Assembly: GCA_013388985.1 (NCBI GenBank)
Contig: JACAEF010000024.1
Location: 8,370 to 72,369, forward strand
DNA: 64,000 bases
From: Rhodocyclaceae bacterium
Lineage (GTDB): Bacteria; Pseudomonadota; Gammaproteobacteria; Burkholderiales; Rhodocyclaceae
Reading direction: 5' to 3'
Shown: piece by piece, positions 13,285 through 48,564 of the stretch
How the letters are laid out: every line of letters begins with the position of its first letter
How positions within the stretch are numbered: position 1 is the stretch's first letter
Made by a program: the position numbers and the translations under genes
The notes under the pieces: generated by a model
What the model was told of the DNA's origin: nothing
Seen by the model: only the letters and a program-made list of their open reading frames with translations
Database searches by the model: none

Positions 13285-15171
<1,887 letters not shown>

Positions 15172-23109: not shown

Positions 23110-24039
23110 ATGCGTCACTTCGTCACTTTGCTACTTGCGCTCTTCATGACAATGACCGGCGGTGCACGCGCCGCCGAGAGGCCGGATTTCCTCGTCGACG
23201 CCGATTGGCTCGCCGAACGCATCCGGGATCCGAAACTGGTCGTGCTCGAAGTGCGCTACCACCCGCATCGTTACTTCACGATCGGTCACGTTCCCGGCGC
23301 GATCCAGGTGCAGCGTTTTGCCGACCTCGGCGCCAACGACAAACTGCCGATCATGAAATTTCCCTCGCGCGAGGTCTTTCAGGCGACCTTGCGACGCTGG
23401 GGCGTGAATGATGATTCGATCATCGTCGTCTATGACGATTCGGTCTCCGCGCTGGCGTCGCGCGTGCTGTTCCTGCTCGACCTCTACGGCTTCGATATGA
23501 AGCGCGTCAAGCTGCTCGACGGAGGCACGGTCGGCTGGACCGGTTTCAACGAACTCGACAAGACTCCGACGCCGCCCAAGCCCCTCGGCAAGGTGACGCT
23601 CAAGCCGGCCGATCCGAAACGGCTGGTCGCTTGGCCCGAGGTCTATCGGCGCGTGGTGGCCGAGCGCGATGCAAAGGTCACGCTGATCGACGCGCGGCCC
23701 ACCGAGATGTATGAGGGCAGCCGTATTCAGCATTCAGTGCAGGGCGGCCACATCCCGGGCGCGATCAACATCGTCAGCTTGCAAGGAGTCGATGGCCAAT
23801 CGCAGCAATGGAAATCTCTCGACGAGCTGGCGAAGCTCTATCAAGCGGTGCCGAAAGACCATACCGTCATCACTTATTGCCACGATGGCTTCCGCTCGAC
23901 GCTGGCCTGGTTACAGTTGAAGGCGCTCGGTTACGCGGAGGTGCGCGTCTATGACGGCGGCTGGGGTGATTGGGACCGCACGCTAACGCTGCCGGTCGTC
24001 AAGGGCGGCAAACCCTTCGACGCCGATTTCGAGCTGTAG
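23110..24039 (+). CDS. Periplasmic two-domain rhodanese (thiosulfate / 3-mercaptopyruvate sulfurtransferase-like)
   Basis: Signal peptide MRHFVTLLLALFMTMTGGARA, tandem rhodanese domains, catalytic loop ITYCHDGFRST in the second domain. Confidence 0.8.
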   Translation: MRHFVTLLLALFMTMTGGARAAERPDFLVDADWLAERIRDPKLVVLEVRYHPHRYFTIGHVPGAIQVQRFADLGANDKLPIMKFPSREVFQATLRRWGVNDDSIIVVYDDSVSALASRVLFLLDLYGFDMKRVKLLDGGTVGWTGFNELDKTPTPPKPLGKVTLKPADPKRLVAWPEVYRRVVAERDAKVTLIDARPTEMYEGSRIQHSVQGGHIPGAINIVSLQGVDGQSQQWKSLDELAKLYQAVPKDHTVITYCHDGFRSTLAWLQLKALGYAEVRVYDGGWGDWDRTLTLPVVKGGKPFDADFEL

Positions 24040-24048
24040 GACGCTTCC

Positions 24049-25404
24049 TCATGGTTCGTTGTCTCTCGACCTGATGCCGAGACGGCGCAGCTTCTCCCAG
24101 AGCGTCTTGCGCGTGATGCCGAGCGCCTCGGCCGCTCGCGTCATGTGGTGATCGTGGCGTTCGAGCATCATCAGCAGATAATCGCGCTCGCAGGCCATCA
24201 GGTAATCGGCCAAGGATGCCGATGCAGGTGGCTGGCCGCCGGTACTGCTCGCCACGCCATCAGTGAAGAACGCTTCCGCTTCGAGCAGCGGCCCGCTGGA
24301 GAGGATGCAGGCGCGCTCGACGGCGTGCTTCAGCTCACGCACATTGCCAGGCCACGAGTAGCTCAGCAGCGCCTGTTCGGTGCGAGGGTCGATGCGCCGC
24401 ATGAGTTCGGGGTGGCGGCGGTTGAAGGCTTCGACGAAATGGCGCACGAACCAGCGGATGTCTTCCGGTCGCTCGCGCAACGGCGGAATGCGCAGATGGA
24501 TGACGTGTATGCGGTAGTAGAGGTCTTCGCGGAACTGACCGGCCTCGACCATCGCCTTGAGATCGCGGTGCGTCGCGCAGACGAGGCGGAAGTCGGCAGC
24601 GACCGGTTTCTCGCCGCCCAGCCGCGTCAGCTTTCTGTCCTGAAGCGTGCGCAGTAGCTTGGCCTGCATCGACAATGGCATTTCGCCGATCTCGTCGAGG
24701 AACAGGGTGCCTTGGTGGGCCTGCTCGAACATGCCGCGCTTGGCTTTGATCGCGCCGGTGAAGGCGCCTTTTTCGTAGCCGAACAGTTCGGCCTCCATCA
24801 GGGATTCCGGAATCGCGGCGCAGTTGACGGCGACGAATTCACCGACCGTGCCCACCGCATGCTGATGAAAAAGGCGCGCGACATGTTCCTTTCCGGAACC
24901 CGACTCGCCGGTGATCAGCAGGGTTTCGATATGGCGGGCGAGTCGGGGCAGGGCTTCGGCGATGCGCTGCATGGCATCGGAAATGCCGAGGCTGGCGTCA
25001 TTCGTGTCGCTTCCCGCCCCATAGCTGGCAGCAAGCCCCCGCACCTTTTGCACCAGCACATCGACATCGAAGGGTTTGGTGACATAGTCGGCGGCTCCGG
25101 CTTTGAGCAGTTCGACCGCACGGTCGATCGTGCCGTAAGCGGTCATGAACAGCCAGGGTGGCAGTCCGGAGAGTCGGCTACGTAGATCCAGGAAGAGCTC
25201 GCCGCCATCGCGGTCGGGCAGCCGGATGTCGCTGACGACGACGTTGAAGCGGTTCTCGCCGATGGCTTGCGCGGCCTCGGCCGCAGTGCGGCACCAGGCC
25301 GGCTCGAAGCCTTCGAGCTGGAAGAGCTGCAGTAGCGATTCGCCCATGATCTCGTCGTCCTCGATGAGACAGATACGGGGATGGAATTCATTGGCCTTGG
25401 GCAT
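24049..25404 (-). CDS. Sigma-54-dependent response regulator (NtrC/AioR-type), paralogue 1
   Basis: REC domain (ICLIEDD...SDIRLPD), AAA+ domain with GESGSGKE and the sigma-54 contact loop EKGAFTGA, C-terminal HTH. 451 aa. Confidence 0.85.
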
Positions 25405-26839
25405 AGGGAATCTCGATGTGAAAGCTCGTGCAGCCGGGTTCGCTATCGACGGTCAGACCGCCGTTGAGTTGCCGGACGATTTGATAGACCACCCACAGTC
25501 CCAATCCGTGTCCCTGGGCACGGCCGGTGGCAAAAGGCTCGAACAGATAGGTCATTTGTTCGTCGGGAATGTGCTGACCGTCGTTGCAGACGGCAAGACG
25601 CAGCATACCGTCGCTCGCGGCGATCTCGAGTTTGACGTGTCCTTGCTCATCGGCCGCCGCGATGGCATTCAAGAGCAGGTTGAGCAGAATTTGCCGCACC
25701 AAGGTCGCGGGCAGAGGCAGCTCGTCGGCAAGCCCGCCTGCCAGTGTGATCGTGACGGAACGGCTCTGGGCCTGAGCCTCGACGAGGATCAGGACGTCCT
25801 CGATGTCGGCGGGCTCGAGGGGGCGATCCTGGGTTTTCGTCTCGACCAGAAGGGCGGCGACGGTATTGCGGATTTGTTGCAGTCCGCGTTCGAGCCGCGC
25901 CATCGTCTGGTTGGCCAGCGCGTCGTCATTGCCGTGTCGCTGCCAGGTCTTGATGGCCGTCAGCATGCCGCCGAGCGGGTTGTTGATTTCATGAGCGATG
26001 CCTGCAGAGAGCCGGCCGACGGCCGCGAGACGCTCGGAGGCCAGCATTTGGGCTTCGAGTTCCTGCTTCTTCCTGAGCTCTGCGATCATGCGGCTGAAAG
26101 CCTGTCCGAGCTGGCCGATTTCGTCCTGATTGTCCGGCAGGGCAAGGCGGGTAGTCTCGTCGAGCCTGTCGGGTACATAGCGCATCGCCTCTGCAAGCGC
26201 CAGCAGCGGTGCCCCCGTGCTGCGCGCCCATACCCATGAGACCGGCATGATGACGACCAGCACGATCAGCGTCACCAGCATGGCGCGGCCGACCAGACCC
26301 AGGAAGCGCGGCAGGAAAGAAGTCTTGGAGTAGCCGAGGATGACGTGCCCGAGAATGACGCCATCGGCGACGAGCGGTGACATGACGAAATAAAGCGACG
26401 ATCCGGAAGGCTCGATGATCTGCTGTTCGAGCGCGGAATGATGGCTGATGCGCGCGCGCAGCTCGGCGTAGGCACCACCCAGTTCGGCGGGACTGCTGCC
26501 GATCGGAAATTTGCGCGGAGTCGTCGACACGAAGACACGGTAACTGGCATCGGTGACCAGCACGATGTTCGCTTGCAGTTCCGGTGAGGGCGGATTGGAC
26601 TCACGCGCCGACTGCAGGATTTCATAGGCCCGCCAGACGTCGTCGTGCAGGACCGGCGCCACGAGCGTGTTGGCCAGCACCTTGCCCAGGCTGCGCGCAT
26701 GCCCTTCGAGGTTTTGCCGCAGCTCGTCGTATTCTCTCGCTACGAGGGCGGTCGTCACCGCGATGGCGGTTCCCATGACGGCCGCCATCACGCGCAGCGG
26801 AATCTTCCAGCGCAGAGAGAGATCCGCAAGCCGGATCAT
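25388..26839 (-). CDS. Sensor histidine kinase (AioS/ArxS-like), paralogue 1
   Basis: Two TM helices flank a periplasmic domain of about 170 aa. HAMP-like linker, H-box AHEINNPL, HATPase N/G boxes (LLNLLLNAI, GHGLGLW). Start MIRLADL overlaps the upstream stop (ATGA). The longer ORF extension was rejected. Confidence 0.8.
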   Translation of the reverse strand: MIRLADLSLRWKIPLRVMAAVMGTAIAVTTALVAREYDELRQNLEGHARSLGKVLANTLVAPVLHDDVWRAYEILQSARESNPPSPELQANIVLVTDASYRVFVSTTPRKFPIGSSPAELGGAYAELRARISHHSALEQQIIEPSGSSLYFVMSPLVADGVILGHVILGYSKTSFLPRFLGLVGRAMLVTLIVLVVIMPVSWVWARSTGAPLLALAEAMRYVPDRLDETTRLALPDNQDEIGQLGQAFSRMIAELRKKQELEAQMLASERLAAVGRLSAGIAHEINNPLGGMLTAIKTWQRHGNDDALANQTMARLERGLQQIRNTVAALLVETKTQDRPLEPADIEDVLILVEAQAQSRSVTITLAGGLADELPLPATLVRQILLNLLLNAIAAADEQGHVKLEIAASDGMLRLAVCNDGQHIPDEQMTYLFEPFATGRAQGHGLGLWVVYQIVRQLNGGLTVDSEPGCTSFHIEIPYAQGQ

Positions 26840-27705
26840 AAGCGGCCTACTCTGACGGCCATGCGGGCGATCTCGTCGTATAACGCGGGCCTTCCCGTGA
26901 TGAAACCGTCGAGCCGCATCGATTCGAGCAATTCCATGCCCATCGGCTCTGTCGCCATCTCCAGGAGCGCGGACCGGAATAGATGCAATTGTGCCTCGGG
27001 GATGTCCGCGCGAGCTACGAAGGGCGGGTAGCCCAGATCCCCGGAGCGGCCGATGATGCGGGTGGCTGCGGTGAGTCGGGGATGGGTTTCTGACAAGGTT
27101 TCCCAAACATAGCCGTCGACGGCACCCCCATCCGCGAGACCGACGCCGACGGCCTCGACCACCTTGCGGTGCGCCCAGGTGAAAAAACTGCGCGCAAAAA
27201 ACAACGAGGGATTCTCGCCCTGCATGGTGAGCAGATACTGCGGATAAAGGTATCCGGAATTCGAATCGGGGTCGGAATAAGCGAATACCTTGCCGCGCAA
27301 ATCTGCCAATGAACGGCTCTGATCGTCGTCGGCAGGCACGATTAGGTATGACCGATAAAGCGGCCGCCCGCGCCACAAAGGCACGGCGACGAGTTTCAGC
27401 TGGCGCCGGTATCGGACATACGGGTAACCGCAAAGCCAGGCGAAATCGAGTTTGCCGCTCAGCAGTAACTCCACGATTTCGCGATAGCTGCCGCGTTGCA
27501 CGAAGATGACCTGACGTTCCAGCTTTTTTTCCAGCCAGGCACGCCAACGGGAAAGGAAACTGACCTGATCATCAAGAAAAACAGGGGTCAGGCCGACGCG
27601 CATCGGCGGCGCTTCGGCGCGCAGCGGCGATATCGGCATCGCGGCAAGCCCGCCAGCCGCTCGAAGGAATCTGCGTCGCGCAAGCCCGCGCTGATCTAGC
27701 TCCAT
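26836..27705 (-). CDS. Periplasmic PhnD-fold (phosphonate/oxyanion-binding) protein, AioX/ArxX-like, paralogue 1
   Basis: Twin-arginine-like signal (RRRFLRAAGGLAA) and PhnD-family pattern (RVGLTPVF...GKLDFAWLCGYPYV...YSDPDSNSGYL...DGGAVDGYVWE). First gene of the X-S-R operon. Confidence 0.75.
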   Translation of the reverse strand: MELDQRGLARRRFLRAAGGLAAMPISPLRAEAPPMRVGLTPVFLDDQVSFLSRWRAWLEKKLERQVIFVQRGSYREIVELLLSGKLDFAWLCGYPYVRYRRQLKLVAVPLWRGRPLYRSYLIVPADDDQSRSLADLRGKVFAYSDPDSNSGYLYPQYLLTMQGENPSLFFARSFFTWAHRKVVEAVGVGLADGGAVDGYVWETLSETHPRLTAATRIIGRSGDLGYPPFVARADIPEAQLHLFRSALLEMATEPMGMELLESMRLDGFITGRPALYDEIARMAVRVGRL

Positions 27706-27801
27706 GCAAGCAATGATAAGCAGCGCAAGCCCTGCTTGCCAGTCCGAGGTTTCTGACGTTACGTCGGTGTATCAGGTTGCATTGCAGCAAATCCGGGAAT
27801 T

Positions 27802-27817
27802 GTTACGCCCGCGTAAC
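27802..27817. promoter_or_regulatory. Perfect inverted repeat GTTACG-CCCG-CGTAAC (candidate enhancer-binding-protein site)
   Basis: Read directly, about 80 nt upstream of the -24/-12 element. Further palindromes lie at 27755..27765 (GACGTTACGTC) and 27725..27739 (GCAAGCcctGCTTGC). Confidence 0.35.
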
Positions 27818-27896
27818 GGCCCTCTTCATGCCATAGCCATAAAGAATCGGGCTAACTTGCGGTTCCTCAACGAAGAGTGACCGAAAACCCCTTTCC

Positions 27897-27912
27897 TGGC
27901 GCGATTGTTGCG
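27897..27912 (+). promoter_or_regulatory. Candidate sigma-54 promoter TGGCGC-N5-TTGCG for the B1-C1-A1 operon
   Basis: GG-N10-GC spacing is exact (consensus TGGCAC-N5-TTGCA). Lies 51 nt upstream of the ATG at 27963, next to a sigma-54-dependent regulator operon. Confidence 0.55.
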
Positions 27913-27962
27913 GATAAGCAGCACCGTTGAGCGCAGTGCATTCACGAGAGGAGGCAAGCCAG

Positions 27963-28673
27963 ATGAGTGAGGAACTGAGAGTCTCGCCGATCGAGACGCG
28001 CGAGGTGCCGGGCAAGCGGCGCTTTGCAATGGTGGTGGATGTCCGCCGTTGCATTGGCTGCATGGCCTGCCAGGTCGCCTGCAAGGCCGAATACGACACG
28101 CCGCTGGGCGTCAACCGCACCTGGGTGCCCTATAAGGTCGTGGGCAAGTATCCGAATGTCAAGAAACACTTTTTGCCGCGCTTGTGCAATCACTGCGACG
28201 ATCCGCCATGCGTGCGCAACTGCCCGGTCGAAGCGACCTTCAAGGTCGATGACGGCGGCTTCATCCTCCAGCGTTACGAACGTTGCATCGGCTGCCGCAG
28301 CTGCATGGCGGCCTGCCCATACAACGCCCGTTTCATGCTGCCAGCGCATCGCACCTACACCCCGATCACCAACGTCGTCGACAAGTGCACCTTCTGTTTC
28401 CATCGCGTCACCCAAAACCTGGTGCCGGCTTGCGTGCAGACCTGCATCGGCCGTTCGCGCGTGTTTGGCGATCTCAACGATCCGACCAGCGAAGTCTCAT
28501 ACCTGGTGGCGAAAAATGCGACCCAGGTGCTGCGTCCCGAACAGGGGACGAAGCCGCATGTGTTCTACATCGGCGCCGACCGCAATCAAACCGAGTTCGG
28601 CCGCGACGCCTATCGCCAGCCCGAAGTGATGGAACTGGAACGCGCAGCCTTCAAACGACACTTCAAGATCTGA
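27963..28673 (+). CDS. 4x[4Fe-4S] electron-transfer subunit of Mo-bisPGD oxidoreductase 1 (DmsB/PsrB/NrfC family), 'B1'
   Basis: Cys motifs CIGCMACQVACK, CNHCDDPPCVRNCP, CIGCRSCMAACP, CTFC...PACVQTC. RBS GAGAGGAGG upstream of the ATG at 27963. Confidence 0.85.
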   Translation: MSEELRVSPIETREVPGKRRFAMVVDVRRCIGCMACQVACKAEYDTPLGVNRTWVPYKVVGKYPNVKKHFLPRLCNHCDDPPCVRNCPVEATFKVDDGGFILQRYERCIGCRSCMAACPYNARFMLPAHRTYTPITNVVDKCTFCFHRVTQNLVPACVQTCIGRSRVFGDLNDPTSEVSYLVAKNATQVLRPEQGTKPHVFYIGADRNQTEFGRDAYRQPEVMELERAAFKRHFKI

Positions 28674-28686
28674 AAGGGGAGCCGTC

Positions 28687-29550
28687 ATGGGTGATTACGT
28701 CTGGTTTCACGATGTATCGTGGCATGCCACTTATGCCATCTATTTCTTCGTCATCGGCATCCTGGCCGGTTTGTCGTTCCTGTCCTATGGCTCTTGGATG
28801 ATGCCGGCGTTGCGGCCCTTGCGAGAAAAGGCTGCCTATGGGTCGCTGGGGCTGCTGGTGGTCGGCGGCTTGCTGTTGATCGCGGACCTTTCGCAACCGC
28901 TGCGTTTCCTGAACATCCTCAACCCGGCTTATCTGCATTTCACCTCGCCGCTGGCCTGGGGAGCGCTCAACATCGTCGCTTTCGGGGTCTGTTCGCTCCT
29001 CTACATCGTCGAGCTGAGGAAAGGTGAAGAGAGTGTGCGTGGCAAAACGCTGGCGATGGTCACTGCGCTATTGGCCTTGGGCCTGCCGATCTACACTGGC
29101 TATGACCTCTCGGTACACCAGTCGCGGCCGATGTGGAACACGCCGATCATGCCGGTGCTTTTCGTCGCCCTTGCGATTGCTTCGGGTTCCGCGGTCGGAA
29201 CGCTGCTCGCAGGAGGCAATCAGGCGGCGCAGAAGATACTGCGGGAATTCATGCTGTGGTCGACGGCGGCAGTCGGCGTGATGCTGATCGGCATTCTCGG
29301 CACGACCAATTACGGCGGTTCGGCCGAAGAGCTGACCTTCATGATCCTGACCACCGGCACGATGGGCATGCTCTTCATCGGCGTCGGTTTCCTGGCTGGC
29401 ACCGCTGCACCGGTCGCCATGCTTTTCTTTGCCCACCTCAAGGAGCGAACGACCGGGCTGTTCCTCGCTGCGATCCTGATTCTGCTGGGCAGTGCCGCCC
29501 TGCGCTATGCGCTGTTGATGGGGCCGCAACAACTGCAAACCCTCTACTGA
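28687..29550 (+). CDS. NrfD/PsrC-family integral membrane quinol-interacting subunit, 'C1'
   Basis: 287 aa, about 8 predicted TM helices. Sits between the Fe-S and catalytic subunits. Confidence 0.75.
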   Translation: MGDYVWFHDVSWHATYAIYFFVIGILAGLSFLSYGSWMMPALRPLREKAAYGSLGLLVVGGLLLIADLSQPLRFLNILNPAYLHFTSPLAWGALNIVAFGVCSLLYIVELRKGEESVRGKTLAMVTALLALGLPIYTGYDLSVHQSRPMWNTPIMPVLFVALAIASGSAVGTLLAGGNQAAQKILREFMLWSTAAVGVMLIGILGTTNYGGSAEELTFMILTTGTMGMLFIGVGFLAGTAAPVAMLFFAHLKERTTGLFLAAILILLGSAALRYALLMGPQQLQTLY

Positions 29551-29571
29551 CCGATTCGAGGAGAGAGAAAC

Positions 29572-32211
29572 ATGGAAATGCCGAAAATTACGCGCCGCAC
29601 CTTCCTCAAGGTCAGCGCTACGACCGGCGCCGCGGCTGCGGCTGCGCCGCGTCTGCTCAACGCCATGGAAAACGAGCTGGGCGGCAAGGACTTCGCACCG
29701 GTGTCCGGCATCGAGCGCAAAGCCATCCCAATCAACTGCCATGTCTGCAACATCCAGGATGGCGCCATTGCCTACGTCGAAAACGATCGCGTCGTGAAAC
29801 TCGAAGGCAATCCCGAACACGTTTCGACACGCGGGCGGTTGTGCGCGAAAGGTAACTCGGGCATGTGGTACAGCTATGATCCCGACCGTATCCTTTATCC
29901 ATTGAAGCGTGTCGGCGCGCGTGGCGAAGGCAAGTGGAAGCGCATCACCTGGGATGAGGCGCTCACCGAGGTGGCGGCCAAGCTCGATGCCGCGCTCAAG
30001 GAAGACCCCAACACCATCATGCTGAAATGGGGGCGCAATCGCACTGGCGGCACATTGGAGCGCTTCATGAAGACGCTCGGTTCGGCGACGGTGCTCAACC
30101 ATACCTCCGTGTGCGAATCATCGAAGAAGATCGGCATGGAGCCAACCTGGGGACCGGACATCGAGACTCCCGATTTCGCCAATACCCGGTATGTGCTCAA
30201 CTTCGGTTCGAACGTGCTGGAAGCATCCTATTTCCATAACCCGCTTTCGCAGCGCATCGCCGATGGGCGTATCGACAATCGCATGAAGATCGTCACTTTT
30301 GATGTGCGCCTGTCGAATACCGCGGGCTTTTCGGACGAGTGGATTCCGGTGCATCCGGCCACCGACGGCGCCGTGGCGCTGGCGATGGGACATGTCATCT
30401 TACGTGAGAACTTGCAGGATTCCGATTTCATCAACACCTGGACCAACGTCACGGTCGATGAGCTGAAGGAGCATTACAAGCAATACACGCCGGAATGGGC
30501 CGAGAAGATCTCCGGCGTGCCGGCGGCGACGATCGAACGCATCGCACGCGAGTTTGCCACCACGAAGCCAGCGACATTATTCACCTATCGTGGCCCGGCC
30601 AAGCATCTCTATGGCTCCTACAACGAAAAAGCGTGCATGATGCTGCCGATCATGACCGGCAACGTCGAGAAGAAAGGCGGCTATTGCCTGCCGCGCGGCA
30701 TGGGCTGGCCGCAGCCCAAGCCTGAGCCTCCGAAACCGGCGAAGGGTTCCTACCTCGCCGACCATCCGGATTATCCGCTCGCGGCGCACAAGGTTTCCCA
30801 TCTCGTACCGTTCTGGATTGCCGATGGCAAGCAGAAGATCAATGTCTATTTCACTTATCAGGACAACCCGGTCTATACCAACCCGGGATCGATGGCCGTG
30901 TGGGGCAAGCTCCTCAAGGATGAGAAACTGATTCCCTTCTTCGTCTCGATGAGCTCGCACATGGGCGAGGAAACGGCGCTGGCCGACATCATCCTGCCCG
31001 ACTGTCCGTATCTCGAGCGTTGGGAGCCCGAATCGATGCCCAACTCGTTGTGGCCGTGGTTGGGCATCCGCCAGCCGGTGCACAAGTCGCTCGGCGAATC
31101 GCGCGAGAACCGCGTGCTGTTGCGCGACATCATCTGGAAGCTCGACCCGGACGGCAAGCGTGGCATGAAGCAGTACTGGGACTTCAAGGATGGCGAGGAT
31201 TACATGCGCCATCATTTCGACAACATCCCGGGCCTCAAGGAAGCCGGCGGCCTCGACTTCCTGAAAAAACATGGGGTCTGGCCGATCTATGGCAAGCTCG
31301 ATCCGAAGACCGGCAAGATCGTCGACAAGACCGGCCGCGAGATCAGGGCCGAGTATGGGTTGCACATGAAGGAACTGTCGGAAGCCGACATGGTCGGCGC
31401 CACGGTGGCCAAGGATGGCCTCATCACCAAGAACGGCAAGGCGATCGGCATCCGTCGCAACGGCAAGAACTATGTCGGCTTTCCGACTGCCAACCGCCTG
31501 ATCAACGTGCGCGTCGACGAGTGGGCCGAATACGGCTTCAACCCGATGCCGACCTTCAAGCGTATCCCATGGCACGAGACGATGAAGGACGACGAACTGA
31601 TCCTCACCACCTTCAAGCTCAACGTGCATAAACAGTCGCGGACGGCCGCGGTGAAGTGGCTGGCGGAGATCGCGCACAGCAATCCGATGTGGATCAACAG
31701 CGAGACCGCAAAGAAGATCGGTGTCAAGACGGGCGATTTGGTGCGAGTCGAATCCAAAGTCGGTTATCTGGTCACCAAGGCTTATGTCACCGAGGGCATC
31801 CATCCGCGCGCGGTGGCGATTCCGACCGGCTTCGGCCACTGGGAATATGGCCGTCTGGCAACCCTGAAACTCAAGGAGAAGAAGGGTGAAGCCAGCCATG
31901 GTCAGGATGACCCCGACCTCAACAACGTCTGGTGGGACGACAAGGGGGTGCATCCGAACAACATCATTCCGGCGGTTGTCGACCCGATCGGCGGCTCGCA
32001 AGGCTGGTATGACACGGTCGTCAAGGTCACCAAGGCCGGACCGAACGACAAGTATGGCGATACGCAGGGTTACTGGGACAAGCACTACGAGGCCTACAAG
32101 GAGACCTTGCGTTACGCCTATACCGGCGATCTGCACCGCAAGATGCACCCGGAGATGGCCAGCTGGGCGGGACCCGAGAGCGTCAAGCCCAAGGTGCATG
32201 GCGGGCACTGA
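29572..32211 (+). CDS. Tat-exported Mo-bisPGD oxidoreductase catalytic subunit 1 (Psr/Phs/Ttr/Arr super-clade, substrate unassigned), 'A1'
   Basis: Tat signal ITRRTFLKVSATTGAAAAAA. N-terminal cluster motif C56-x2-C59-x3-D63-x27-C91. KRVGARGEGKWKRITWDEAL. Probable Mo-ligand Cys in NHTSVCESS. 879 aa. Confidence 0.85.
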   Translation: MEMPKITRRTFLKVSATTGAAAAAAPRLLNAMENELGGKDFAPVSGIERKAIPINCHVCNIQDGAIAYVENDRVVKLEGNPEHVSTRGRLCAKGNSGMWYSYDPDRILYPLKRVGARGEGKWKRITWDEALTEVAAKLDAALKEDPNTIMLKWGRNRTGGTLERFMKTLGSATVLNHTSVCESSKKIGMEPTWGPDIETPDFANTRYVLNFGSNVLEASYFHNPLSQRIADGRIDNRMKIVTFDVRLSNTAGFSDEWIPVHPATDGAVALAMGHVILRENLQDSDFINTWTNVTVDELKEHYKQYTPEWAEKISGVPAATIERIAREFATTKPATLFTYRGPAKHLYGSYNEKACMMLPIMTGNVEKKGGYCLPRGMGWPQPKPEPPKPAKGSYLADHPDYPLAAHKVSHLVPFWIADGKQKINVYFTYQDNPVYTNPGSMAVWGKLLKDEKLIPFFVSMSSHMGEETALADIILPDCPYLERWEPESMPNSLWPWLGIRQPVHKSLGESRENRVLLRDIIWKLDPDGKRGMKQYWDFKDGEDYMRHHFDNIPGLKEAGGLDFLKKHGVWPIYGKLDPKTGKIVDKTGREIRAEYGLHMKELSEADMVGATVAKDGLITKNGKAIGIRRNGKNYVGFPTANRLINVRVDEWAEYGFNPMPTFKRIPWHETMKDDELILTTFKLNVHKQSRTAAVKWLAEIAHSNPMWINSETAKKIGVKTGDLVRVESKVGYLVTKAYVTEGIHPRAVAIPTGFGHWEYGRLATLKLKEKKGEASHGQDDPDLNNVWWDDKGVHPNNIIPAVVDPIGGSQGWYDTVVKVTKAGPNDKYGDTQGYWDKHYEAYKETLRYAYTGDLHRKMHPEMASWAGPESVKPKVHGGH

Positions 32212-32339
32212 TTGGAGATGCGGGGATTCGTCCGTCGTGGTCCTGTCGCGGCGGACGGGATTTGAAGGTCCGGCATTCATGCGGACCATTTTTCGGGGTT
32301 CGACATGCTCAGCAGTATTTTCGAAATCGAGGACGAAGG

Positions 32340-32365
32340 GAAAATCGGCGCTGGCGAGACGGCAG
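32340..32365 (-). repeat. Dispersed intergenic repeat, copy 6 (CTGCCGTCTCGCCAGCGCCGATTTTC on minus strand)
   Basis: Read directly. Lies between the A1 stop (32211) and the preferred TorD-like start (32389). Confidence 0.8.
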
Positions 32366-32388
32366 TCATTCCTGCATCGCCAGCGGCG

Positions 32389-33147
32389 ATGGCCGCCGAA
32401 TGTCGCGCGCGTGCAAGCGTGTATCGTCTGTTGTCCGGTGTGTTCGTCGAGGAGGCCGCTGCGGAATTCCTCGCGGCGATTCGCGCCGACGACATGCTGC
32501 GCCAGCTTGCGGAAACCGGTTTGCGTTTCGACGATGACTTCGTCGCCACGCCTTTGAGCGAATTGGTCGAGACGTTGGCAATCGAATATGCAAGTCTGTT
32601 CGCCGCTTCCGGCGGTTTCCCGCCGGTCGAATCGGTGCGGCTTTATGGTCGTTACAAGCAAGAGCCTGAATTCGCGACGATGCAAACCTACCGGCGGCTT
32701 GGATTCGTTCTGCAGTCCGGCCGCCATGAGGTGTTTGCCGATCAGCTCGGTGTGGAGTTGATGTTCGTTGCCGCGCTGCTCGAGCGCCAGGCTGTGCGGC
32801 TCGATGGCGATGGGCATGCGCAGGCGCGCGAGCTGGAAAAAGAGATCAAGCGGTTCTGGACGCAGCATCTCGGCCGCTGGGCACGCGGCTATGGGCGCTT
32901 GGTCGAGCGCGCCGCCTCGCATTCTTTCTACCGCGAGATGGGGCGCTTTCTTGCCGGCTTCGCCGAAGAGGAGATCGGGGCGATGGGACTGCGCGTCGAG
33001 GATGCCGATCAGGCACGTCTCGAAGTTCCGAAGGCCGAGGTGCAAGTCGCGTTCGACCCGGACGAACCGGTCTGCAATGGCTGTGCCAGTGAAGCCATCG
33101 CCCAACGGTCGGGCATTGTCTCTGTCTTGCACGATCTGCGCGTATGA
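32389..33147 (+). CDS. TorD/DmsD-family redox-enzyme maturation chaperone 1
   Basis: MAAECRARASVYRLLSGVFVEE...EYASLF...ADQLGVELMFVAALL is TorD-family-like. An alternative upstream ATG at 32305 would place the repeat inside the CDS, so 32389 is preferred. Confidence 0.7.
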   Translation: MAAECRARASVYRLLSGVFVEEAAAEFLAAIRADDMLRQLAETGLRFDDDFVATPLSELVETLAIEYASLFAASGGFPPVESVRLYGRYKQEPEFATMQTYRRLGFVLQSGRHEVFADQLGVELMFVAALLERQAVRLDGDGHAQARELEKEIKRFWTQHLGRWARGYGRLVERAASHSFYREMGRFLAGFAEEEIGAMGLRVEDADQARLEVPKAEVQVAFDPDEPVCNGCASEAIAQRSGIVSVLHDLRV

Positions 33148-33587
33148 AACTCCTCGATCTTGCCTCGCGTGAGCTGCTCCCGCCAGACCGACGGGTTCTC
33201 GCGCATCTCGATTGGTCCGAGGTCGCGGCGATGTGGAATGGCAACCGTCTGGAACAACTTCACGACTGGCTCAACGAACGCTGGTCGCGGCTGATCCGCA
33301 ACAGCCTGCTCGGCACGAAGGACCCCGAAGCGGAATTTCTGCAGGCACTCGCCTATGCCGTGCTGGCTCTGTTCTTCACCCAGAATCACAATCAGGAAGG
33401 CGCACTCCTGATGATCGACGATGCACAGCTGACGCTGGGGAAATATCGCCCTCGCTTCCTCGGCGTGCACGTCGATCCGATCCTCGCCGCGTTGCAAGAG
33501 CTGCGACCCCTGCTGGTCGGACTCGCCCCTGACGCGGAGTGTCCACTCTATCCTTTCGTCTATCCGAAATTCGAATACACGGGCTGA
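33144..33587 (+). CDS. Hypothetical protein, possibly DUF309-like
   Basis: 147 aa. ATG overlaps the upstream stop (ATGA). LHDWLNERW...FLQALAYAVLALFFTQNHNQEGALLMIDDA loosely resembles the DUF309 helical pattern. Confidence 0.45.
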   Translation: MKLLDLASRELLPPDRRVLAHLDWSEVAAMWNGNRLEQLHDWLNERWSRLIRNSLLGTKDPEAEFLQALAYAVLALFFTQNHNQEGALLMIDDAQLTLGKYRPRFLGVHVDPILAALQELRPLLVGLAPDAECPLYPFVYPKFEYTG

Positions 33588-33593
33588 TTTCTC

Positions 33594-34286
33594 ATGGATA
33601 GAGCGGTGAGCGAGAAGTCGTCGCTGTTGATACGGCGGCTGGCAGCCTTCGACCCGGAGCGGACGGAGCGGATCACGGCGGAAGATTTCCTCTTCGACGC
33701 GCCGGGCATCGAGACCGTCGCTGACGCATGTGCGGGCATCGTCGTCGCGACGGGTGGCGCCGAGCGGGCTATGACCTTGCTGGCTGTCGGTGCGCCTTTT
33801 GTATTCCTCGGCGATGCAGCGCTGAGCGACAGCGATGCGCTGACACGGCTGGCGCAGGCGCATCCGGGACGTATCGGCATCCATGCCTTGGCGCGGCGCA
33901 TGGCTGTCAGCTGGTCGTTCGAGACGACCTCGAACGCCGATTTCAAGACCGTGGCGCCTTCTCTGTGCGAGCCATCCTGGGAAATCCTCAAGTCTGACGG
34001 TGCGCCGACCGGCGTGCTCGCCGGCTGGTGGCTGAAAGCCATGCAGGACTTGGGGGCGATGGGCATGCTCGTCCGCGCCGAAGTGTGCGATGACACCGAT
34101 CTCAACATCCTCGCCGGCCTGAGCGAGGAATTCGGTGACCTCCTCTGGGTCGCGCCACTGAATGGCATGCATCTGCCCCTCGCCGACTGGGTTGTCTATG
34201 GCCATGGCCGGCGACTGGCCCTGCCCGACGAGATTCATGCACGCCGTGCGGAACTGCTCGGCGACTTTATGGCCGCGGCCCGATGA
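33594..34286 (+). CDS. Hypothetical protein with HisA/HisF-like TIM-barrel segment
   Basis: 230 aa. IVVATGGAERAMTLLAVGAPFVFLGDAALSDSDALTRLAQAHPGRIGIHAL aligns by eye with the HisF segment VAGGI....A..L..GADK..I...AL.DP.L...LA..FG. Tightly packed in the operon. Confidence 0.4.
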   Translation: MDRAVSEKSSLLIRRLAAFDPERTERITAEDFLFDAPGIETVADACAGIVVATGGAERAMTLLAVGAPFVFLGDAALSDSDALTRLAQAHPGRIGIHALARRMAVSWSFETTSNADFKTVAPSLCEPSWEILKSDGAPTGVLAGWWLKAMQDLGAMGMLVRAEVCDDTDLNILAGLSEEFGDLLWVAPLNGMHLPLADWVVYGHGRRLALPDEIHARRAELLGDFMAAAR

Positions 34287-34290
34287 GACC

Positions 34291-34746
34291 ATGAACTTTT
34301 CGCTTTCCGTGTTCCTCATGTTGCTGGGCCTGTCGGGCACCGTTCGCGCTGATGTCGTATTCATGGAGCGGGTGCAACTGCTCCAAGCCTTGAAGACCAA
34401 TGCTCCTTGTTGCGTCATCGATGCACGCAATGAAGTCAGCCGAAAAAAGCATCCACTCGATGATGCCTTGCCCTACACGGAAGACATGCGACTCAACCCC
34501 AGCGCGGCCATCGTCGTAATCGCGGATAACGATGCAAACGCTTTGCGCGTCGCAAAGATTCTCGATGCAGCCTATCCTGGCCAGCGAGTCTGCGCCGTCA
34601 AGGGTGGTGTGAGAGCCTGGGAAGCGACGCTCGTCGAACTCAGCCGTGCAGCCGCCAGCGGACCGCCGAGCGGCATCGGCTTCATCATTCCGAAGAATAC
34701 CTGCGAGTCGGGCTCACCGCTGCAACGGCTGCGCAGCGCCAAATAA
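34291..34746 (+). CDS. Secreted single-domain rhodanese-homology protein lacking the catalytic Cys
   Basis: Signal peptide MNFSLSVFLMLLGLSGTVRA. Rhodanese pattern (CCVIDARNE...AIVVIADNDANALRVAKIL...VKGGVRAWE). The active-site loop reads IADNDANALR, with no Cys. Confidence 0.55.
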   Translation: MNFSLSVFLMLLGLSGTVRADVVFMERVQLLQALKTNAPCCVIDARNEVSRKKHPLDDALPYTEDMRLNPSAAIVVIADNDANALRVAKILDAAYPGQRVCAVKGGVRAWEATLVELSRAAASGPPSGIGFIIPKNTCESGSPLQRLRSAK

Positions 34747-34751
34747 GTCAC

Positions 34752-35837
34752 ATGACGATAGCTTATCCAGAGTTTCACGCCTCGTGTTGCACCCGCTATC
34801 GCTACCGCTATAGCGAGTGCCGGCGCTGTGCCGATGCCTGTCCGCACGAGGCGATCGTTCTTGATGATCATGGCGCCGAGATCGACCGCTCACGTTGTCA
34901 AAACTGCGCTCTTTGTGTCTCGGCATGCCACACCGGCGCGTTGGCGAGTGCGACATTCAAGCCGATCGATCTGTTGCGTCAGGCCATCAAGCAGCCTGCT
35001 TACAGCATCGCCTGCGCACCTTCCGGCCTCGCTGCGGATGCAACCGTTCCCTGTCTGGGGGCGATCGACGCCGTGATGATCGCCTATCTGGGCAAGCGCC
35101 GCATCCCACTGTCCCTCCTTGGCAGTGCGCATTGCAGCGACTGTCCCCATGGCGCGCGTGGTGCCGCGCAGCTGGTGCTCAATCTCGACGCGGCCAGTGC
35201 ATTGAAGCGGGCTGCGCAGGAGGAGGGGAGAGACTGGCTCGATCCGGGGCTTGTCGATACCTCGGTCGTGAGCAAGCCAGTCCGGGCGGAGCGCCGCCAG
35301 TTGTTCCGCCGCTTCATCGGTCGCGGAGTCGATGCCGTGACTGCGTCACAAACCGCGGCTCGCGCCGTGATTCCCGACAGGGCCATCCGTGCCGGTCCCT
35401 ATGTGGGCACCGAACAGCGCGAGCTGTTGCAGATCGTCTGTGAGCGTAAGGACGGCCAGCCCGCACGCATCGGCTGGCACGAAGCGCTACCATTGATGCA
35501 ACTTACATTGCAGGCGGGTTGCACTGCTTGTGAAGCCTGTTTCCGCGCCTGTCCGACCGGTGCGATCCAGATCGCCGAGGATTCCGCTGACTGGGCCCTG
35601 ACGTTCCAGACCGATCGCTGCGTCGCCTGCGAGGTCTGTCTCGAAGTCTGCCAGCCGCGCGTGCTCGATGCCGCAGCTGGTTTCGATGCCCGTCCCGAAC
35701 AGCCGGTGCAGGTATTGCATCGCCTGCACAAGCAGCGCTGTGCACGCTGCGATCGTTTTTTTGTCTCGGCCCGGCCGGCGGAAACCTGCCCGGTCTGCCG
35801 TGACGACGAAGAAGCATTCGCGGCGATATTCGGATAG
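34752..35837 (+). CDS. Polyferredoxin (2+2 [4Fe-4S] motifs) with C-terminal CxxC...CxxC zinc-ribbon, paralogue 1
   Basis: Motifs CRRCADACP, CQNCALCVSAC, CTACEACFRACP, CVACEVCLEVC, and C-terminal CARCDRFFVSARPAETCPVC. Same architecture as 36283..37452. Confidence 0.7.
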   Translation: MTIAYPEFHASCCTRYRYRYSECRRCADACPHEAIVLDDHGAEIDRSRCQNCALCVSACHTGALASATFKPIDLLRQAIKQPAYSIACAPSGLAADATVPCLGAIDAVMIAYLGKRRIPLSLLGSAHCSDCPHGARGAAQLVLNLDAASALKRAAQEEGRDWLDPGLVDTSVVSKPVRAERRQLFRRFIGRGVDAVTASQTAARAVIPDRAIRAGPYVGTEQRELLQIVCERKDGQPARIGWHEALPLMQLTLQAGCTACEACFRACPTGAIQIAEDSADWALTFQTDRCVACEVCLEVCQPRVLDAAAGFDARPEQPVQVLHRLHKQRCARCDRFFVSARPAETCPVCRDDEEAFAAIFG

Positions 35838-35853
35838 CAAGGAGTTGGAAGCG

Positions 35854-36255
35854 ATGGAATGGGAATTCACCCCCGAAGATGTCGTCAAGGGCTACAGCGG
35901 CTACGGTCTGGCCGAGTTCCGCCGCGACCTGGCCGAAGAGGTGCGCATCAACGTCGGCGACGATGCCGAGCGCTTTGCGCGCGTCTATCATCTGCTCTAC
36001 GATCTCTGTTACGCGCTCGCCACCAACAAGGATTTCGAGGCGCATCTGTCCGCTTATGCCTACGATCCACCGACGGTGCAGTTCCTGCGTGAATTGCAAC
36101 CGCTGATGGAAGACAACGTCGCCATGTTGGGGGCTATCCTGCAGCGCCAGATCATGGATCGCGTCGCCGCTGGCATGCCGCTGGAGACCGCGATTGCCGA
36201 CGTCGCCGAATGGCACCGACAGAGCATTGCCGCCGAGCCTGCCGCAGCGGACTGA
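35854..36255 (+). CDS. Small acidic hypothetical protein (133 aa)
   Basis: RBS AAGGAG 9 nt upstream of the ATG. MEWEFTPEDVVKGYSGYGLAEFRRDLAEEV... No family recognised. Last gene of operon 1. Confidence 0.5.
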   Translation: MEWEFTPEDVVKGYSGYGLAEFRRDLAEEVRINVGDDAERFARVYHLLYDLCYALATNKDFEAHLSAYAYDPPTVQFLRELQPLMEDNVAMLGAILQRQIMDRVAAGMPLETAIADVAEWHRQSIAAEPAAAD

Positions 36256-36282: not shown

Positions 36283-37452
36283 TCACGAACCCTTGAAGAG
36301 GCTGGCTCCCATGGCATGATTGCGTCGACAGCTGGGGCAGAGTGCGCTCAGGGAGGAAGTGGCGAAAACCCGCAGACATTCGCGGCAGATCCGCAAGGCA
36401 TGGCTGGTCAGCCGTTGCGGCGCTTCGCTGAGGGGGGGAGTGTCGGCGCGACGCAGGCGCAGCGCGTGCTCTGGGCAGGCGGTCACGCATCTACCGCAGC
36501 CAATGCAGCGCAGCGCATCGAACTCGATGCCGGTTCGTTCCGGTTCCTCATAGCGTCTGAGCGCCGCGGTTGGACAGACCCCTGCGCAGACCGTGTGATT
36601 GGCGCACTCCGGCTCGATTTCCACGACGTGAAACGGCGTGGCGGGAACGGAATGCCCGGCTCGCGTCGCGACACGCAGTAGCAGCGTGAGCAGACGTGAG
36701 CGCGCCGGTAACGGCATCAGGTCTGTTCTGCGCAGGGCATGGGGTTGCGGGAGCTTCTGGGCGTCGTCGATGCCGACCGCGCGTCTGGCTTCGTTGCCCA
36801 GCCGCAGCAGAAAACCTCGCCGCGCCGGGGCGGTGGGGGCAGCGTCAGGAATATGTCGGGGCATCCGGCTGGCCGGCAAGGGTTCGCGACTCAGCCTGGG
36901 GAGGTATGTGGCAGGCACGCCTGCCACCTCCAGCCATTGCGCGGCTGTTTCGAGTGCCGCAGCAGCCGGATGCCGTTCGACGCATTTTGCCCCGGCATTG
37001 CACTGGCGGCACCAGCCTCGATCGATGACGAGCACGGGTTGCGTCCCCGCATTTTCGACCAGTTCGAGCCAGTCCGCAGGCGCCAGACCACCCAGGCAGG
37101 GAACGCGCAGGGCCGTTCCGGCAACGTGGCGATCGATCTTCTGACACTCGATACGCAACGGGGTGACGGCCGGAAGCGCATCGGGCAGAGCGAAGCCTTT
37201 GACGACAAGGGCGCCGGTGGGACAGGCGGCCGCGCAGCGGCCGCAGCCGAGGCATTGATTGCCGATGCGAAATACGCCCGCGCCGATGTCGATGCACTCG
37301 ACCGGGCAGGCGCTGCGGCAGGTACTGCAACCCGATTCGTCGAATCGCAGGGCGATGCAGGCCGCAGGCAACAGACGCACCCGGCCATCGGCTTCGACCG
37401 CCTGCCAGTCATGCCCCGATGACACGGCGGAATACTGCAGGGAATCTCTCAC
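36283..37452 (-). CDS. Polyferredoxin (2+2 [4Fe-4S] motifs) with C-terminal zinc-ribbon, paralogue 2
   Basis: Motifs CSTCRSACP, CLGCGRCAAACP, CANHTVCAGVCP, CIGCGRCVTACP, and C-terminal CRECLRVFATSSLSALCPSC. GTG start overlaps the upstream stop (GTGA). Confidence 0.7.
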   Translation of the reverse strand: MRDSLQYSAVSSGHDWQAVEADGRVRLLPAACIALRFDESGCSTCRSACPVECIDIGAGVFRIGNQCLGCGRCAAACPTGALVVKGFALPDALPAVTPLRIECQKIDRHVAGTALRVPCLGGLAPADWLELVENAGTQPVLVIDRGWCRQCNAGAKCVERHPAAAALETAAQWLEVAGVPATYLPRLSREPLPASRMPRHIPDAAPTAPARRGFLLRLGNEARRAVGIDDAQKLPQPHALRRTDLMPLPARSRLLTLLLRVATRAGHSVPATPFHVVEIEPECANHTVCAGVCPTAALRRYEEPERTGIEFDALRCIGCGRCVTACPEHALRLRRADTPPLSEAPQRLTSHALRICRECLRVFATSSLSALCPSCRRNHAMGASLFKGS

Positions 37453-47730: not shown

Positions 47731-48564
47731 ATGACGACGCTGTATTGCGGCCGCTACCGGCTGGTGCTCGATCGCCCGCTGATCATGGGCATCGTCAATC
47801 TGACGCCCGATTCGTTTTCCGGGGACGGCGTCGGCGACGATACCAGCGCCGCGATCGCCCATGCCGAAGCGCAACGCGCGGCCGGTGCCGACATCCTCGA
47901 TCTCGGCGCCGAATCCTCGCGTCCCGGTGCGGCGCCGGTGCCCGCGGAGGTCGAAATCACGCGCCTGCGGCCGGTGCTGCGGGCGCTGCGCGACTGGGAT
48001 GTGCCGGTCTCGGTCGATACGGCCAAGCCGGAGGTGATGCGCATGGCGATCGACGAGGGCGCGGCGCTGATCAACGACATCATGGCCCTGCGCGCGCCCG
48101 GCGCACTGGAATGCGTGGCGAACAGCGACGTCGGCGTCTGCCTGATGCACATGCAGAAGGATCCGCGCACGATGCAGGCGCAGCCACATTACGAAGATGT
48201 GGTCGAGGAGGTGCATGCGTTCCTCACCGCTCGCCTGATGGCCTGTGTCGCCGCCGGCATCGAGCACGAACGGATCTGCATCGATCCCGGCTTCGGCTTC
48301 GGCAAGACCGTGGCGCACAACTACACGCTGCTGCGCGAGCTGCGGCGTTTTACGGAGCTGGGCGTGCCGGTGCTGGCCGGGCTGTCGCGCAAGTCGATGC
48401 TCGGCGCGGTGACCGGGCGCGACAGCGGTCCGGCGCGCATGCCGGCGAGCATCGCGGCGGCGCTGCTGGCGGTCGAGCGCGGCGCGCGCATCGTGCGCGT
48501 GCATGACGTCGCCGCGACCAAGGATGCGCTCGCCGTGCTGGCGGCGATGGAAGGGAGGATTTGA
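47731..48564 (+). CDS. folP: Dihydropteroate synthase
   Basis: [43 protein letters not shown]. 277 aa, upstream of glmM. Confidence 0.9.

Follow-up and report, generated by a model that had tools for sequence, protein, structure and literature searches.

A conserved molybdoenzyme unit with an aspartate in its FS0 motif and an AioXSR-type sensor triad, a candidate arsenic-oxyanion oxidoreductase

The 64,000-nucleotide stretch of contig JACAEF010000024.1 from a Rhodocyclaceae bacterium (hereafter the window, with positions counted from its first letter) carries a conserved unit of 12 genes (24049–36255) in which R1-S1-X1 lie divergently from B1-C1-A1-D1-u147-u230-rhd1-fdx361-u134. The subject of this work is the enzyme encoded by B1, C1 and A1, whose catalytic subunit (A1) is a molybdenum-bis(pyranopterin guanine dinucleotide) (Mo-bisPGD) protein exported by twin-arginine translocation (Tat). 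Among 185,579 species genomes scanned, 80 loci encode proteins 74–91% identical to A1, and analysis of their gene content with tblastn and clustering of open reading frames revealed the 12-gene layout in nearly all 80. The carriers include Aromatoleum, Thauera, Sulfuritalea, Dechloromonas, Rhodoferax, Polaromonas, Hydrogenophaga and Thiobacillus as well as Sulfuricella, Gallionella, Sideroxydans, Hydrogenophilus and Thiohalomonadaceae. Lithotrophs and denitrifiers predominate among them (Thiobacillus, Sulfuricella, Gallionella, Sideroxydans, Hydrogenophilus, Sulfuritalea, Thauera and Aromatoleum). The enzyme, its sensor triad and the control region between them are laid out as follows:

24049–25404, minus strand: R1, NtrC/AioR-type sigma-54-dependent response regulator (Pfam Response_reg, Sigma54_activat at 224 bits and HTH_8; at least 63 loci)
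25388–26839, minus strand: S1, AioS-like membrane sensor histidine kinase (Pfam HAMP, HisKA and HATPase_c; about 70 loci)
26836–27705, minus strand: X1, by sequence a periplasmic AioX-type arsenic-oxyanion sensor protein with a Tat/RR-type signal (PDB matches and alignment)
27759–27816, no strand assigned: candidate tandem activator sites TTAC-N6-GTAA (sequence)
27897–27911, plus strand: predicted sigma-54 (-24/-12) promoter TGGCGC-N5-TTGC (sequence), 52 nt upstream of the B1 start
27963–28673, plus strand: B1, four-cluster ferredoxin subunit with no Tat signal (NCBIfam TtrB 216 bits against a cut-off of 416, DsrO 195, ArrB 186)
28687–29550, plus strand: C1, NrfD/PsrC-type membrane anchor with a presumed quinone site (Pfam NrfD 115 bits; NCBIfam TtrC 62 against a cut-off of 314)
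29572–32211, plus strand: A1, Tat-exported Mo-bisPGD catalytic subunit (translation, NCBIfam, PDB and homologue comparisons)

An earlier note, made from the letters of this DNA, had described the plus-strand B-C-A gene order, the Tat signal and motifs of A1 and a dedicated sensor triad, and the coordinates, translations and domain searches agree with it on each point. Translation of 29572–32211 yields 879 amino acids with the Tat motif TRRTFLK and with KRVGARGEGKWKRITWDEAL, NHTSVCESS and KWGRNRTGG. The triad combines the Phosphonate-bd domain of X1 (189 bits) with the kinase domains of S1 and the Response_reg, Sigma54_activat and HTH_8 domains of R1. The start of S1 overlaps the stop of X1 and its end overlaps the start of R1 (as read from the translation). 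B1, which is 71–94% identical in 79 loci, starts with MSEELRVSPIETREVPGKRRFAMVVD and aligns only from position 34 of the TtrB profile, indicating that the signal peptide is missing.

Conserved aspartate in the FS0 motif of A1

The complete set of A1 cysteines numbers seven (positions 56, 59, 91, 181, 355, 372 and 478). Its FS0 motif, the iron-sulfur cluster motif near the N-terminus, reads C56-H-V-C59-N-I-Q-D63-G...C91 (nt 29737–29844, with C56 starting at 29737, D63 encoded by GAT at 29758–29760 and C91 at 29842–29844), and so departs from the canonical four-cysteine pattern C-x2-C-x3-C-x(n)-C. The predicted Mo-ligand cysteine, Cys181, is encoded at 30112–30114. In HMMER alignments, the CHVCNIQDG segment of A1 falls over CEGCFWRCG of Thermus thermophilus PsrA (2vpw) and over the CxxCxxxC segment of ArrA (6cz7; Cys61/64/68), in which the FS0 ligands are numbered Cys61, 64, 68 and 96 (PMC10654088). 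Both alignments thus place D63 at the position of the third cysteine. The neighbouring A2 (40288–43077, minus strand) has the canonical CHQCPARCG, as the note had read, together with the Arx signature GRGWG (LTGRGWGYS). A1 has neither this signature nor the (R/K)GRY signature of Arr, and reads KWGRNRTGG at that position.

The note had proposed checking whether the aspartate is shared by the nearest relatives of A1 or is peculiar to the strain. A protein search over 5.8 billion sequences provided a comparison set of the best 120 matches (80–91% identity), and 119 of them carry CH[VF]CN[IV]QDG. The sole non-Asp protein (P0001), from an ENA metagenome contig and 91% identical to A1, has an alanine at position 63 (CHVCNIQAG). 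This substitution is either a sequencing error or a hint that the enzyme can do without the aspartate, as would be the case with a [3Fe-4S] cluster. The aspartate is also present in the nearest relatives among the 50%-identity cluster representatives (P0127, with CFTCNIRDG, and P0121, P0123 and P0144), which form one group with A1 in a neighbour-joining tree, and it occurs separately in P0150/P0186, P0176 and P0151. The tree was midpoint-rooted, had no bootstrap, had as its only named anchors A2 (ArxA), PhsA of an E. coli plasmid and UnkA of Thermomicrobium roseum, and was used for the distribution of the aspartate and not for deep branching. The B-C-A order recurs on the contigs of P0127, P0121 and P0125, and among the relatives compared the NHTS(V/I)C context of the Mo ligand is confined to the A1 family and P0127. 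Judged by these comparisons, the aspartate is a fixed trait of the family and not a chance or strain-specific change.

A Cys-Cys-Asp-Cys motif next to the Mo cofactor would be expected to hold an Asp-ligated [4Fe-4S] or a [3Fe-4S] cluster of shifted potential. We speculate that the potential is probably higher, which would be compatible with an oxidase. Cys372 and Cys478 are invariant in the A1 family, but their absence from P0127 makes them unlikely as a general substitute ligand. To our knowledge, A1 would be the first natural Mo-bisPGD enzyme with an aspartate at an FS0 ligand position; a literature search found no report of another. The AlphaFold2 model of A1, built from a shallow alignment of 39 sequences (80–91% identity), has a mean predicted local distance difference test (pLDDT) score of 57.8, with the FS0 and active-site segments below 50, and is not usable for geometry.

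A sister lineage (P0124, P0125 at locus L086, P0128, P0153 and P0216) has lost all four FS0 cysteines and apparently the Mo-ligand cysteine too. Its members still have the Tat signal, the B-C-A order, the four-cluster ferredoxin and the NrfD subunit, and may be non-catalytic or differently ligated relatives.

Sensor triad and promoter

Among solved structures, X1 matches AioX of Rhizobium NT-26 (6esv) with 243 bits and ArrX (6x6b) with 132 bits. X2, the ArxX-like sensor that accompanies A2, scores 204 bits against AioX, which is below the score of X1. The joint alignment gives X1 identities of 45% with AioX, 46% with X2 and 33% with ArrX. X1 keeps all seven pocket residues (Y88, C106, Y131, S161, S163, H192 and D210), and each of these positions is conserved in at least 72 of 75 unit-linked X proteins, including a divergent Comamonadaceae type only about 40% identical to X1. 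The 75 unit-linked proteins also keep the Val56/Phe57(Ile) loop, which is found in arsenite binders and lacking in ArrX (PMC5908839), whose N-terminal region does not align. Badilla et al. reported that arsenite is the ligand of AioX and ArxX and arsenate that of ArrX, that each sensor of the family thereby binds the substrate of its cognate enzyme, and that none of the three bound tetrathionate, thiosulfate, selenate, sulfate, molybdate, phosphonate or antimonite (PMC5908839). By sequence, X1 belongs to the AioX/ArxX/ArrX subfamily of arsenic-oxyanion sensors, suggesting an arsenic ligand.

This assignment goes against the supposition, in the earlier note, that A1 acts on a different substrate from A2. 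The subfamily of X1, together with neighbouring ars, arx and XSR (sensor triad) genes, makes the same element, arsenic, most likely for both enzymes, although the arsenic species or the direction may still differ between them.

Direction is the point on which a respiratory arsenate reductase, an enzyme of the same architecture that, as in Arr and the Ttr-like archaeal arsenate reductases, passes quinol electrons to arsenate, would diverge from an arsenite oxidase. The XSR-type sensor would suit such an enzyme, as ArrX is in the same subfamily, and so would the ars neighbours, which are common. A1 also retains the active-site His, Ser and Lys of ArrA (His177, Ser179 and Lys186 corresponding to His189, Ser190 and Lys198). 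However, X1 stands much nearer the arsenite binders, with which it shares the loop that ArrX lacks, and A1 is without the (R/K)GRY motif and both substrate-binding tyrosines: its KWGR-NRTGG aligns to LRGRYSHIND of ArrA, and Pro195 stands at the position of Tyr210. Many hosts, moreover, are aerobic or microaerophilic lithotrophs with ubiquinone only. Arsenate reduction by enzymes other than Arr has precedents in the TtrA/SrdA/alternative-Arr clade (PMC10100899), and Sulfuritalea metagenome-assembled genomes (MAGs), a group in which the unit is found, have been implicated in As(V) reduction without arrAB (PMC11283718). On balance, we consider arsenate respiration by A1 unlikely.

The region between X1 and B1 contains an exact copy of the inverted repeat TTAC-N6-GTAA (27803–27816), the sole exact copy in the window, and a one-mismatch copy (27759–27772) 44 nt upstream. 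The repeat is present in 51 of 57 X1-B1 intergenic regions (0.8 expected from shuffles), always with a 6-nt spacer and often in tandem with 43–44 nt between copies. Almost all of the 57 regions have an element of the TGG(C/T)-N7/8-TTGC type at the place equivalent to the predicted promoter of B1. Promoters of aioBA controlled by aioXSR have a -24/-12 box and two palindromes 100–200 nt upstream (PMC3834237), an architecture that the -24/-12 element and tandem palindromes of the B1 promoter match.

These regulatory features bear on the possibility that the enzyme reduces a sulfur oxyanion (tetrathionate, thiosulfate or polysulfide) in the manner of Ttr or Psr. The gene order is B-C-A, B1, C1 and A1 find their best NCBIfam models in TtrB, TtrC and PhsA, respectively, and the nearest structure to A1 is PsrA, with ArrA almost tied in a comparison made with a poor model. 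Sulfur oxidisers are numerous among the hosts, and a rhodanese-like accessory gene (rhd1) is part of the unit. TtrS also senses through a PhnD-like domain (PMC5408782). On the other side, all profile scores are far below the family cut-offs, R1 is of the sigma-54/NtrC type and not of the TtrR type, and rhd1 is without the catalytic cysteine. B1 has no Tat signal, unlike the Ttr clade (PMC2500031), and the AioX-family sensors did not bind tetrathionate or thiosulfate (PMC5908839). Energetics also argue against this reaction. The hosts have ubiquinone-only chains, which favour a donor-oxidising or high-potential reaction and make the reduction of low-potential sulfur compounds such as thiosulfate or polysulfide from ubiquinol implausible. 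We regard a sulfur reductase as distinctly unlikely.

The regulatory genes do not always share the ancestry of the enzyme. In 12 Comamonadaceae loci (L010, L016, L019, L021–L025, L029, L030, L043 and L045), A1 is 84–87% identical to A1 of the window but the adjacent X, S and R proteins are only about 40%, 29% and 45% identical, with the pocket residues kept. This disparity indicates that the structural operon and the sensor triad have different histories.

Accessory genes and genomic neighbourhood

Downstream of A1, the unit continues with six genes on the plus strand:

32305–33147, plus strand: D1, TorD/NarJ-family maturation chaperone (Pfam Nitrate_red_del 57 bits; 74 loci)
33144–33587, plus strand: u147, conserved protein with no Pfam or PADLOC match (70 loci)
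33594–34286, plus strand: u230, weak HisA/HisF (TIM-barrel) similarity (PF00977, His_biosynth, weakly in 15 of 15 orthologues, best E 2e-5; 70 loci)
34291–34746, plus strand: rhd1, secreted degenerate rhodanese-like protein (alignment; weak Rhodanese matches in 6 of 12 orthologues; 62 loci)
34752–35837, plus strand: fdx361, cytoplasmic polyferredoxin, ArxB2/ArrE-like (Pfam Fer4 families; 67 loci)
35854–36255, plus strand: u134, conserved protein and last gene of the unit, with no family match (63 loci)

PADLOC and Pfam returned nothing for u147, u230, rhd1 and u134, and scans of their orthologue sets added only the weak His_biosynth (u230) and Rhodanese (rhd1) matches. The polyferredoxin fdx361 is colinear with the arx-linked ferredoxin of 389 amino acids at 36283–37452 (23% identity, E 3e-12). 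A moaA gene lies 3' of the unit in 28 loci.

The rhd1 protein has no active-site cysteine but has an invariant C-terminal F-x-I-P-x-N/D-T-C-E-x-G motif with one invariant cysteine, and it may be a carrier of the substrate or of sulfur or arsenic. The C-terminal cysteine recalls swinging-arm carriers such as SoxY. In one alternative, the enzyme would act on an arsenic-sulfur compound, for example by cleaving or forming monothioarsenate, which is isostructural with thiosulfate, at the Mo site, with rhd1 as the carrier. The PhsA-like profile of A1, the arsenic-type sensor, the many sulfur oxidisers among the hosts and a conserved, secreted rhd1 with its invariant cysteine near the C-terminus would fit such a reaction. 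Yet the proposal is purely inferential, no thioarsenate-specific enzyme is known with which to compare A1 and about a quarter of the loci have no rhd1, and we consider this reaction highly improbable.

A secreted two-domain rhodanese (23110–24039, plus strand) lies just outside R1 and matches the 3-mercaptopyruvate sulfurtransferase profile (104 bits) and, weakly, ExtH. Only one other locus (L066) has a close copy (65% identity) beside the unit, and the matches in L006 and L048 are just 26% identical, so we do not count it as part of the conserved unit.

Arsenic genes recur near the unit. In Azoarcus sp. KH32C the unit (A1 89% identical) is on plasmid pAZKH, immediately after arsR-arsC-arsD-arsA-acr3. 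Genes of ars type are within 10 kb of the unit in 17 loci and a second XSR triad is within 10 kb in 7 further loci, including the arx cluster of this window, giving 24 of 82 loci with one or the other. With 1–3 ars operons per multi-megabase genome, we estimate the chance of finding one in a random 20-kb neighbourhood at only about 1%. A permease beside the unit in 10 loci, at first taken as ArsP, had only weak matches to SaoE and SO_0444-type NCBIfam models and was not counted as an arsenic gene. In six loci (L007, L008, L009, L013 and L004, from Sulfuritalea and Rhodocyclales MAGs, and L033) an X2-like XSR triad stands directly beside the unit's own triad, and the loci end there. Sulfuritalea has been reported to respire arsenate with arrAB (PMC6397845).

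The neighbourhood also touches on enzymes for other oxyanions. A selenium, tellurium or antimony oxidoreductase, such as an SrdBCA-like selenate reductase or an antimonite/antimonate enzyme, would need a retuned sensor. X1 scores 98 bits against the model of a putative selenate-binding protein, but this is below its score with the generic PhnD model and far below the cut-off of the selenate model. The window contains a yqeB-like gene and the rhodanese with the weak ExtH match, both of which lie outside the conserved unit. SrdBCA has a B-C-A order and a Cys-ligated Mo (PMC10100899), ars resistance genes are common to antimony and arsenic, and Hydrogenophaga taeniospiralis, a species with Sb(III)-oxidising strains (PMC11521347), carries the unit. 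However, neither selenate nor antimonite was bound by AioX, ArxX or ArrX (PMC5908839). An enzyme for these elements appears quite unlikely to us.

In the window, a block at approximately 15.2–47.7 kb sits between ftsH (13306–15171) and folP (47731–48564), two genes that are usually adjacent. The arsenic-gene part of the block (approximately 24–46 kb) has a G+C content of 0.59–0.65, against 0.64–0.69 for most of the flanks. The block also holds a modE-like gene, the yqeB-like gene for Mo-cofactor maturation (182 bits, cut-off 220), modC/modB-like transporter genes and an mgtA-type P-type ATPase gene, and looks like a horizontally acquired arsenic/molybdenum island. Its A2 is an ArxA with a Lys/Ala/Glu-rich, coiled-coil-like insertion of about 100 residues (nt ~41830–42130), and the arxB2-like polyferredoxin gene (36283–37452, minus strand) comes after arxABCD and not before. 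Such an insertion and a trailing arxB2 match the 'group 2' arx clusters of strain M52, Sulfuricella denitrificans skB26 and Sulfuritortus calidifontis J1A (PMC6549141).

Candidate function and comparison with known systems

Our preferred, though tentative, reading is that A1-B1-C1 is an arsenic-oxyanion oxidoreductase, probably one that oxidises arsenite and feeds the ubiquinone pool. We infer its substrate, direction and cluster type from the comparisons above. Arsenic-oxyanion chemistry appears most likely because X1 has the AioX/ArxX pocket and loop and because the unit travels with ars, arx and XSR genes. Oxidation of arsenite would be preferred because X1 resembles the arsenite binders and such sensors bind the substrate of their enzyme, and because the hosts are largely ubiquinone-based lithotrophs and denitrifiers, to which an extra inorganic donor would be useful.

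In the proposed mechanism, A1, B1 and C1 would form a periplasm-facing, membrane-anchored complex of a catalytic subunit, a ferredoxin and an NrfD-type quinone subunit. X1 would signal to the kinase S1 and, through it, to the activator R1, which would act on the TTAC-N6-GTAA sites to turn on the sigma-54 promoter. B1-C1-A1 would be transcribed together with the genes for the TorD chaperone, the ArxB2/ArrE-like polyferredoxin and four family-specific small proteins. The complex would then oxidise arsenite and pass the electrons into the ubiquinone pool, in parallel to Arx.

Several points weigh against arsenite oxidation by A1. Sensors for arsenite and for arsenate have the same pocket residues, which do not alone set specificity (PMC5908839), so that sensor similarity cannot fix the ligand of X1. 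ArrA Tyr166 and Tyr210 and the signature motifs of both Arr and Arx are absent from A1 in the alignment. The top-scoring profiles are TtrB for B1, TtrC for C1 and PhsA for A1, and the rhodanese-like rhd1 hints at sulfur chemistry. About 70% of the loci have no arsenic gene within 10 kb. Finally, a second arsenite oxidase beside Arx looks redundant in this window, although Sulfuritortus calidifontis J1A is known to have both Aio and Arx (PMC6397845).

A bolder proposal, which we hold as doubtful, is that A1-B1-C1 represents a third class of arsenic bioenergetic enzyme beside Aio and Arr/Arx: arsenite-induced, quinone-coupled, equipped with an Asp-ligated or 3Fe cluster and possibly served by a secreted carrier with a cysteine motif. 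Predictions of how mobile arsenic is in aquifers, mine tailings and paddy soils now rest on the marker genes aioA, arxA and arrA. Many of the dominant genera there (including Sulfuritalea, Thiobacillus, Sulfuricella, Gallionella, Sideroxydans, Rhodoferax, Polaromonas, Thauera and Dechloromonas) carry the unit, which is highly conserved, with 75–91% identity across orders. If A1 were an arsenic redox enzyme, surveys of the three markers would overlook a major player that is widespread in groundwater and freshwater Beta- and Gammaproteobacteria and that could explain arsenic redox activity in organisms and MAGs without aioA, arxA or arrA. An Asp-FS0 enzyme would also be helpful for understanding the way in which the potential of a cluster tunes catalytic direction. 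Carriers that are cultured and genetically tractable (Aromatoleum aromaticum EbN1, Azoarcus sp. KH32C and Hydrogenophilus thermoluteolus) make these proposals directly testable.

No characterised family takes in A1 by sequence, in keeping with the earlier note's separation of A1 from known enzymes. Its NCBIfam scores are far below the equivalog cut-offs (PhsA 360 bits against 694, ArrA 184.5 against 1600 and TtrA 142 against 1750), and its best solved structures are distant relatives (PsrA 2vpw, 207 bits, E 3e-60; ArrA 6cz7, E 2e-49). Foldseek, run on the low-confidence model of A1, ranked PsrA first (E 1.6e-31) with ArrA almost tied.

As a sequence, however, the A1 family is not new. The Aromatoleum aromaticum EbN1 protein CAI09802, which bears the annotation 'molybdenum enzyme related to thiosulfate reductase and polysulfide reductase', shares 87% identity with A1. 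An 'Unk' clade of unknown function with the gene order unkBCA was described by Duval et al. 2008 (BMC Evol Biol 8:206; PMC2500031), who placed it as the clade nearest Arr. Their supplementary alignment shows NCHVCNIQDG, identical to A1, in both UnkA_AzoEb (YP_160703.1) and UnkA_DecAr, and their text states that all Unk members carry C-X2-C-X3-C-X27-C (PMC2500031). The aspartate was thus visible but unremarked. UnkBCA of the Azoarcus EbN1/Dechloromonas RCB branch is the same family as A1, with orthology, B-C-A order and a Tat signal carried by subunit A in common and no structural difference; that study gave no account of the aspartate, the XSR triad, the 12-gene unit or the arsenic neighbourhood. 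We take YP_160703.1 to be the same protein as CAI09802. The Unk protein of Thermomicrobium roseum, to which A1 aligns over 90% of its length with 32% identity, belongs to a system that is Tat-less and anchor-less and has a B subunit of 510 amino acids. Searches of the literature for the EbN1 accessions, 'UnkA', Asp-ligated FS0 and arsenite oxidisers without aio or arx found no paper characterising the A1 family. As far as we found, the conserved aspartate, the 12-gene unit, the AioXSR-type control and the arsenic linkage had not been described before.

Arr and Arx resemble the A1 enzyme in their Tat-exported, Cys-ligated Mo-bisPGD subunit, four-cluster ferredoxin and NrfD-type anchor, and the A1 unit also has their TorD chaperone, ArxB2/ArrE-like polyferredoxin and divergent XSR triad with a sigma-54 regulator. 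The identity between A1 and A2 is about 31–33% over most of their length. The systems differ in gene order, which is (C)AB or B2ABCD in Arr and Arx and B-C-A in the A1 unit, in the aspartate that A1 has as third FS0 ligand and in the four extra family-specific genes of the unit.

PsrABC and PhsABC provide the best sequence and fold match (PsrA) and the best NCBIfam profile (PhsA) for A1, and have an NrfD-type anchor as well. The alignment of A1 with PsrA is good over the N-terminal two thirds and weak over the remainder. Unlike the A1 unit, these systems have an A-B-C order, a four-cysteine FS0 and other regulation, and A1 reaches only about half of the PhsA cut-off.

TtrBCA is like the A1 unit in its B-C-A order and in giving the best NCBIfam scores for B1 and C1. 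However, the scores reach 142 of 1750 bits for TtrA, 216 of 416 for TtrB and 62 of 314 for TtrC, the FS0 of A1 has an aspartate, and B1 is without the Tat signal found in the Ttr clade (PMC2500031). The regulators differ too: TtrS is a kinase with a fused PhnD-like domain and TtrR is a non-sigma-54 regulator (PMC5408782), whereas X1 is free-standing, S1 is without a Phosphonate-bd domain and R1 has Sigma54_activat. The doubt that the earlier note cast on a tetrathionate reductase was therefore justified. Of four features compared, only the order is shared, and the A1 unit departs from TtrBCA in the equivalog scores, the Tat signal of B1 and the TtrSR-type control.

The selenate reductase SrdBCA is alike in its B-C-A order, as judged from its published description. 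NaoABC, a new Sb(III) oxidase, is NapA/Rieske-like and unrelated to A1 (PMC11521347). The closest parallel on the regulatory side is with AioXSR, ArxXSR and ArrXSR, which share with X1-S1-R1 the three proteins, their domain make-up, the sensor pocket and a sigma-54 promoter with tandem palindromes. What sets the X1-S1-R1 triad apart is the company it keeps, a Psr/Unk-type B-C-A enzyme and not AioBA, ArxAB or ArrAB.

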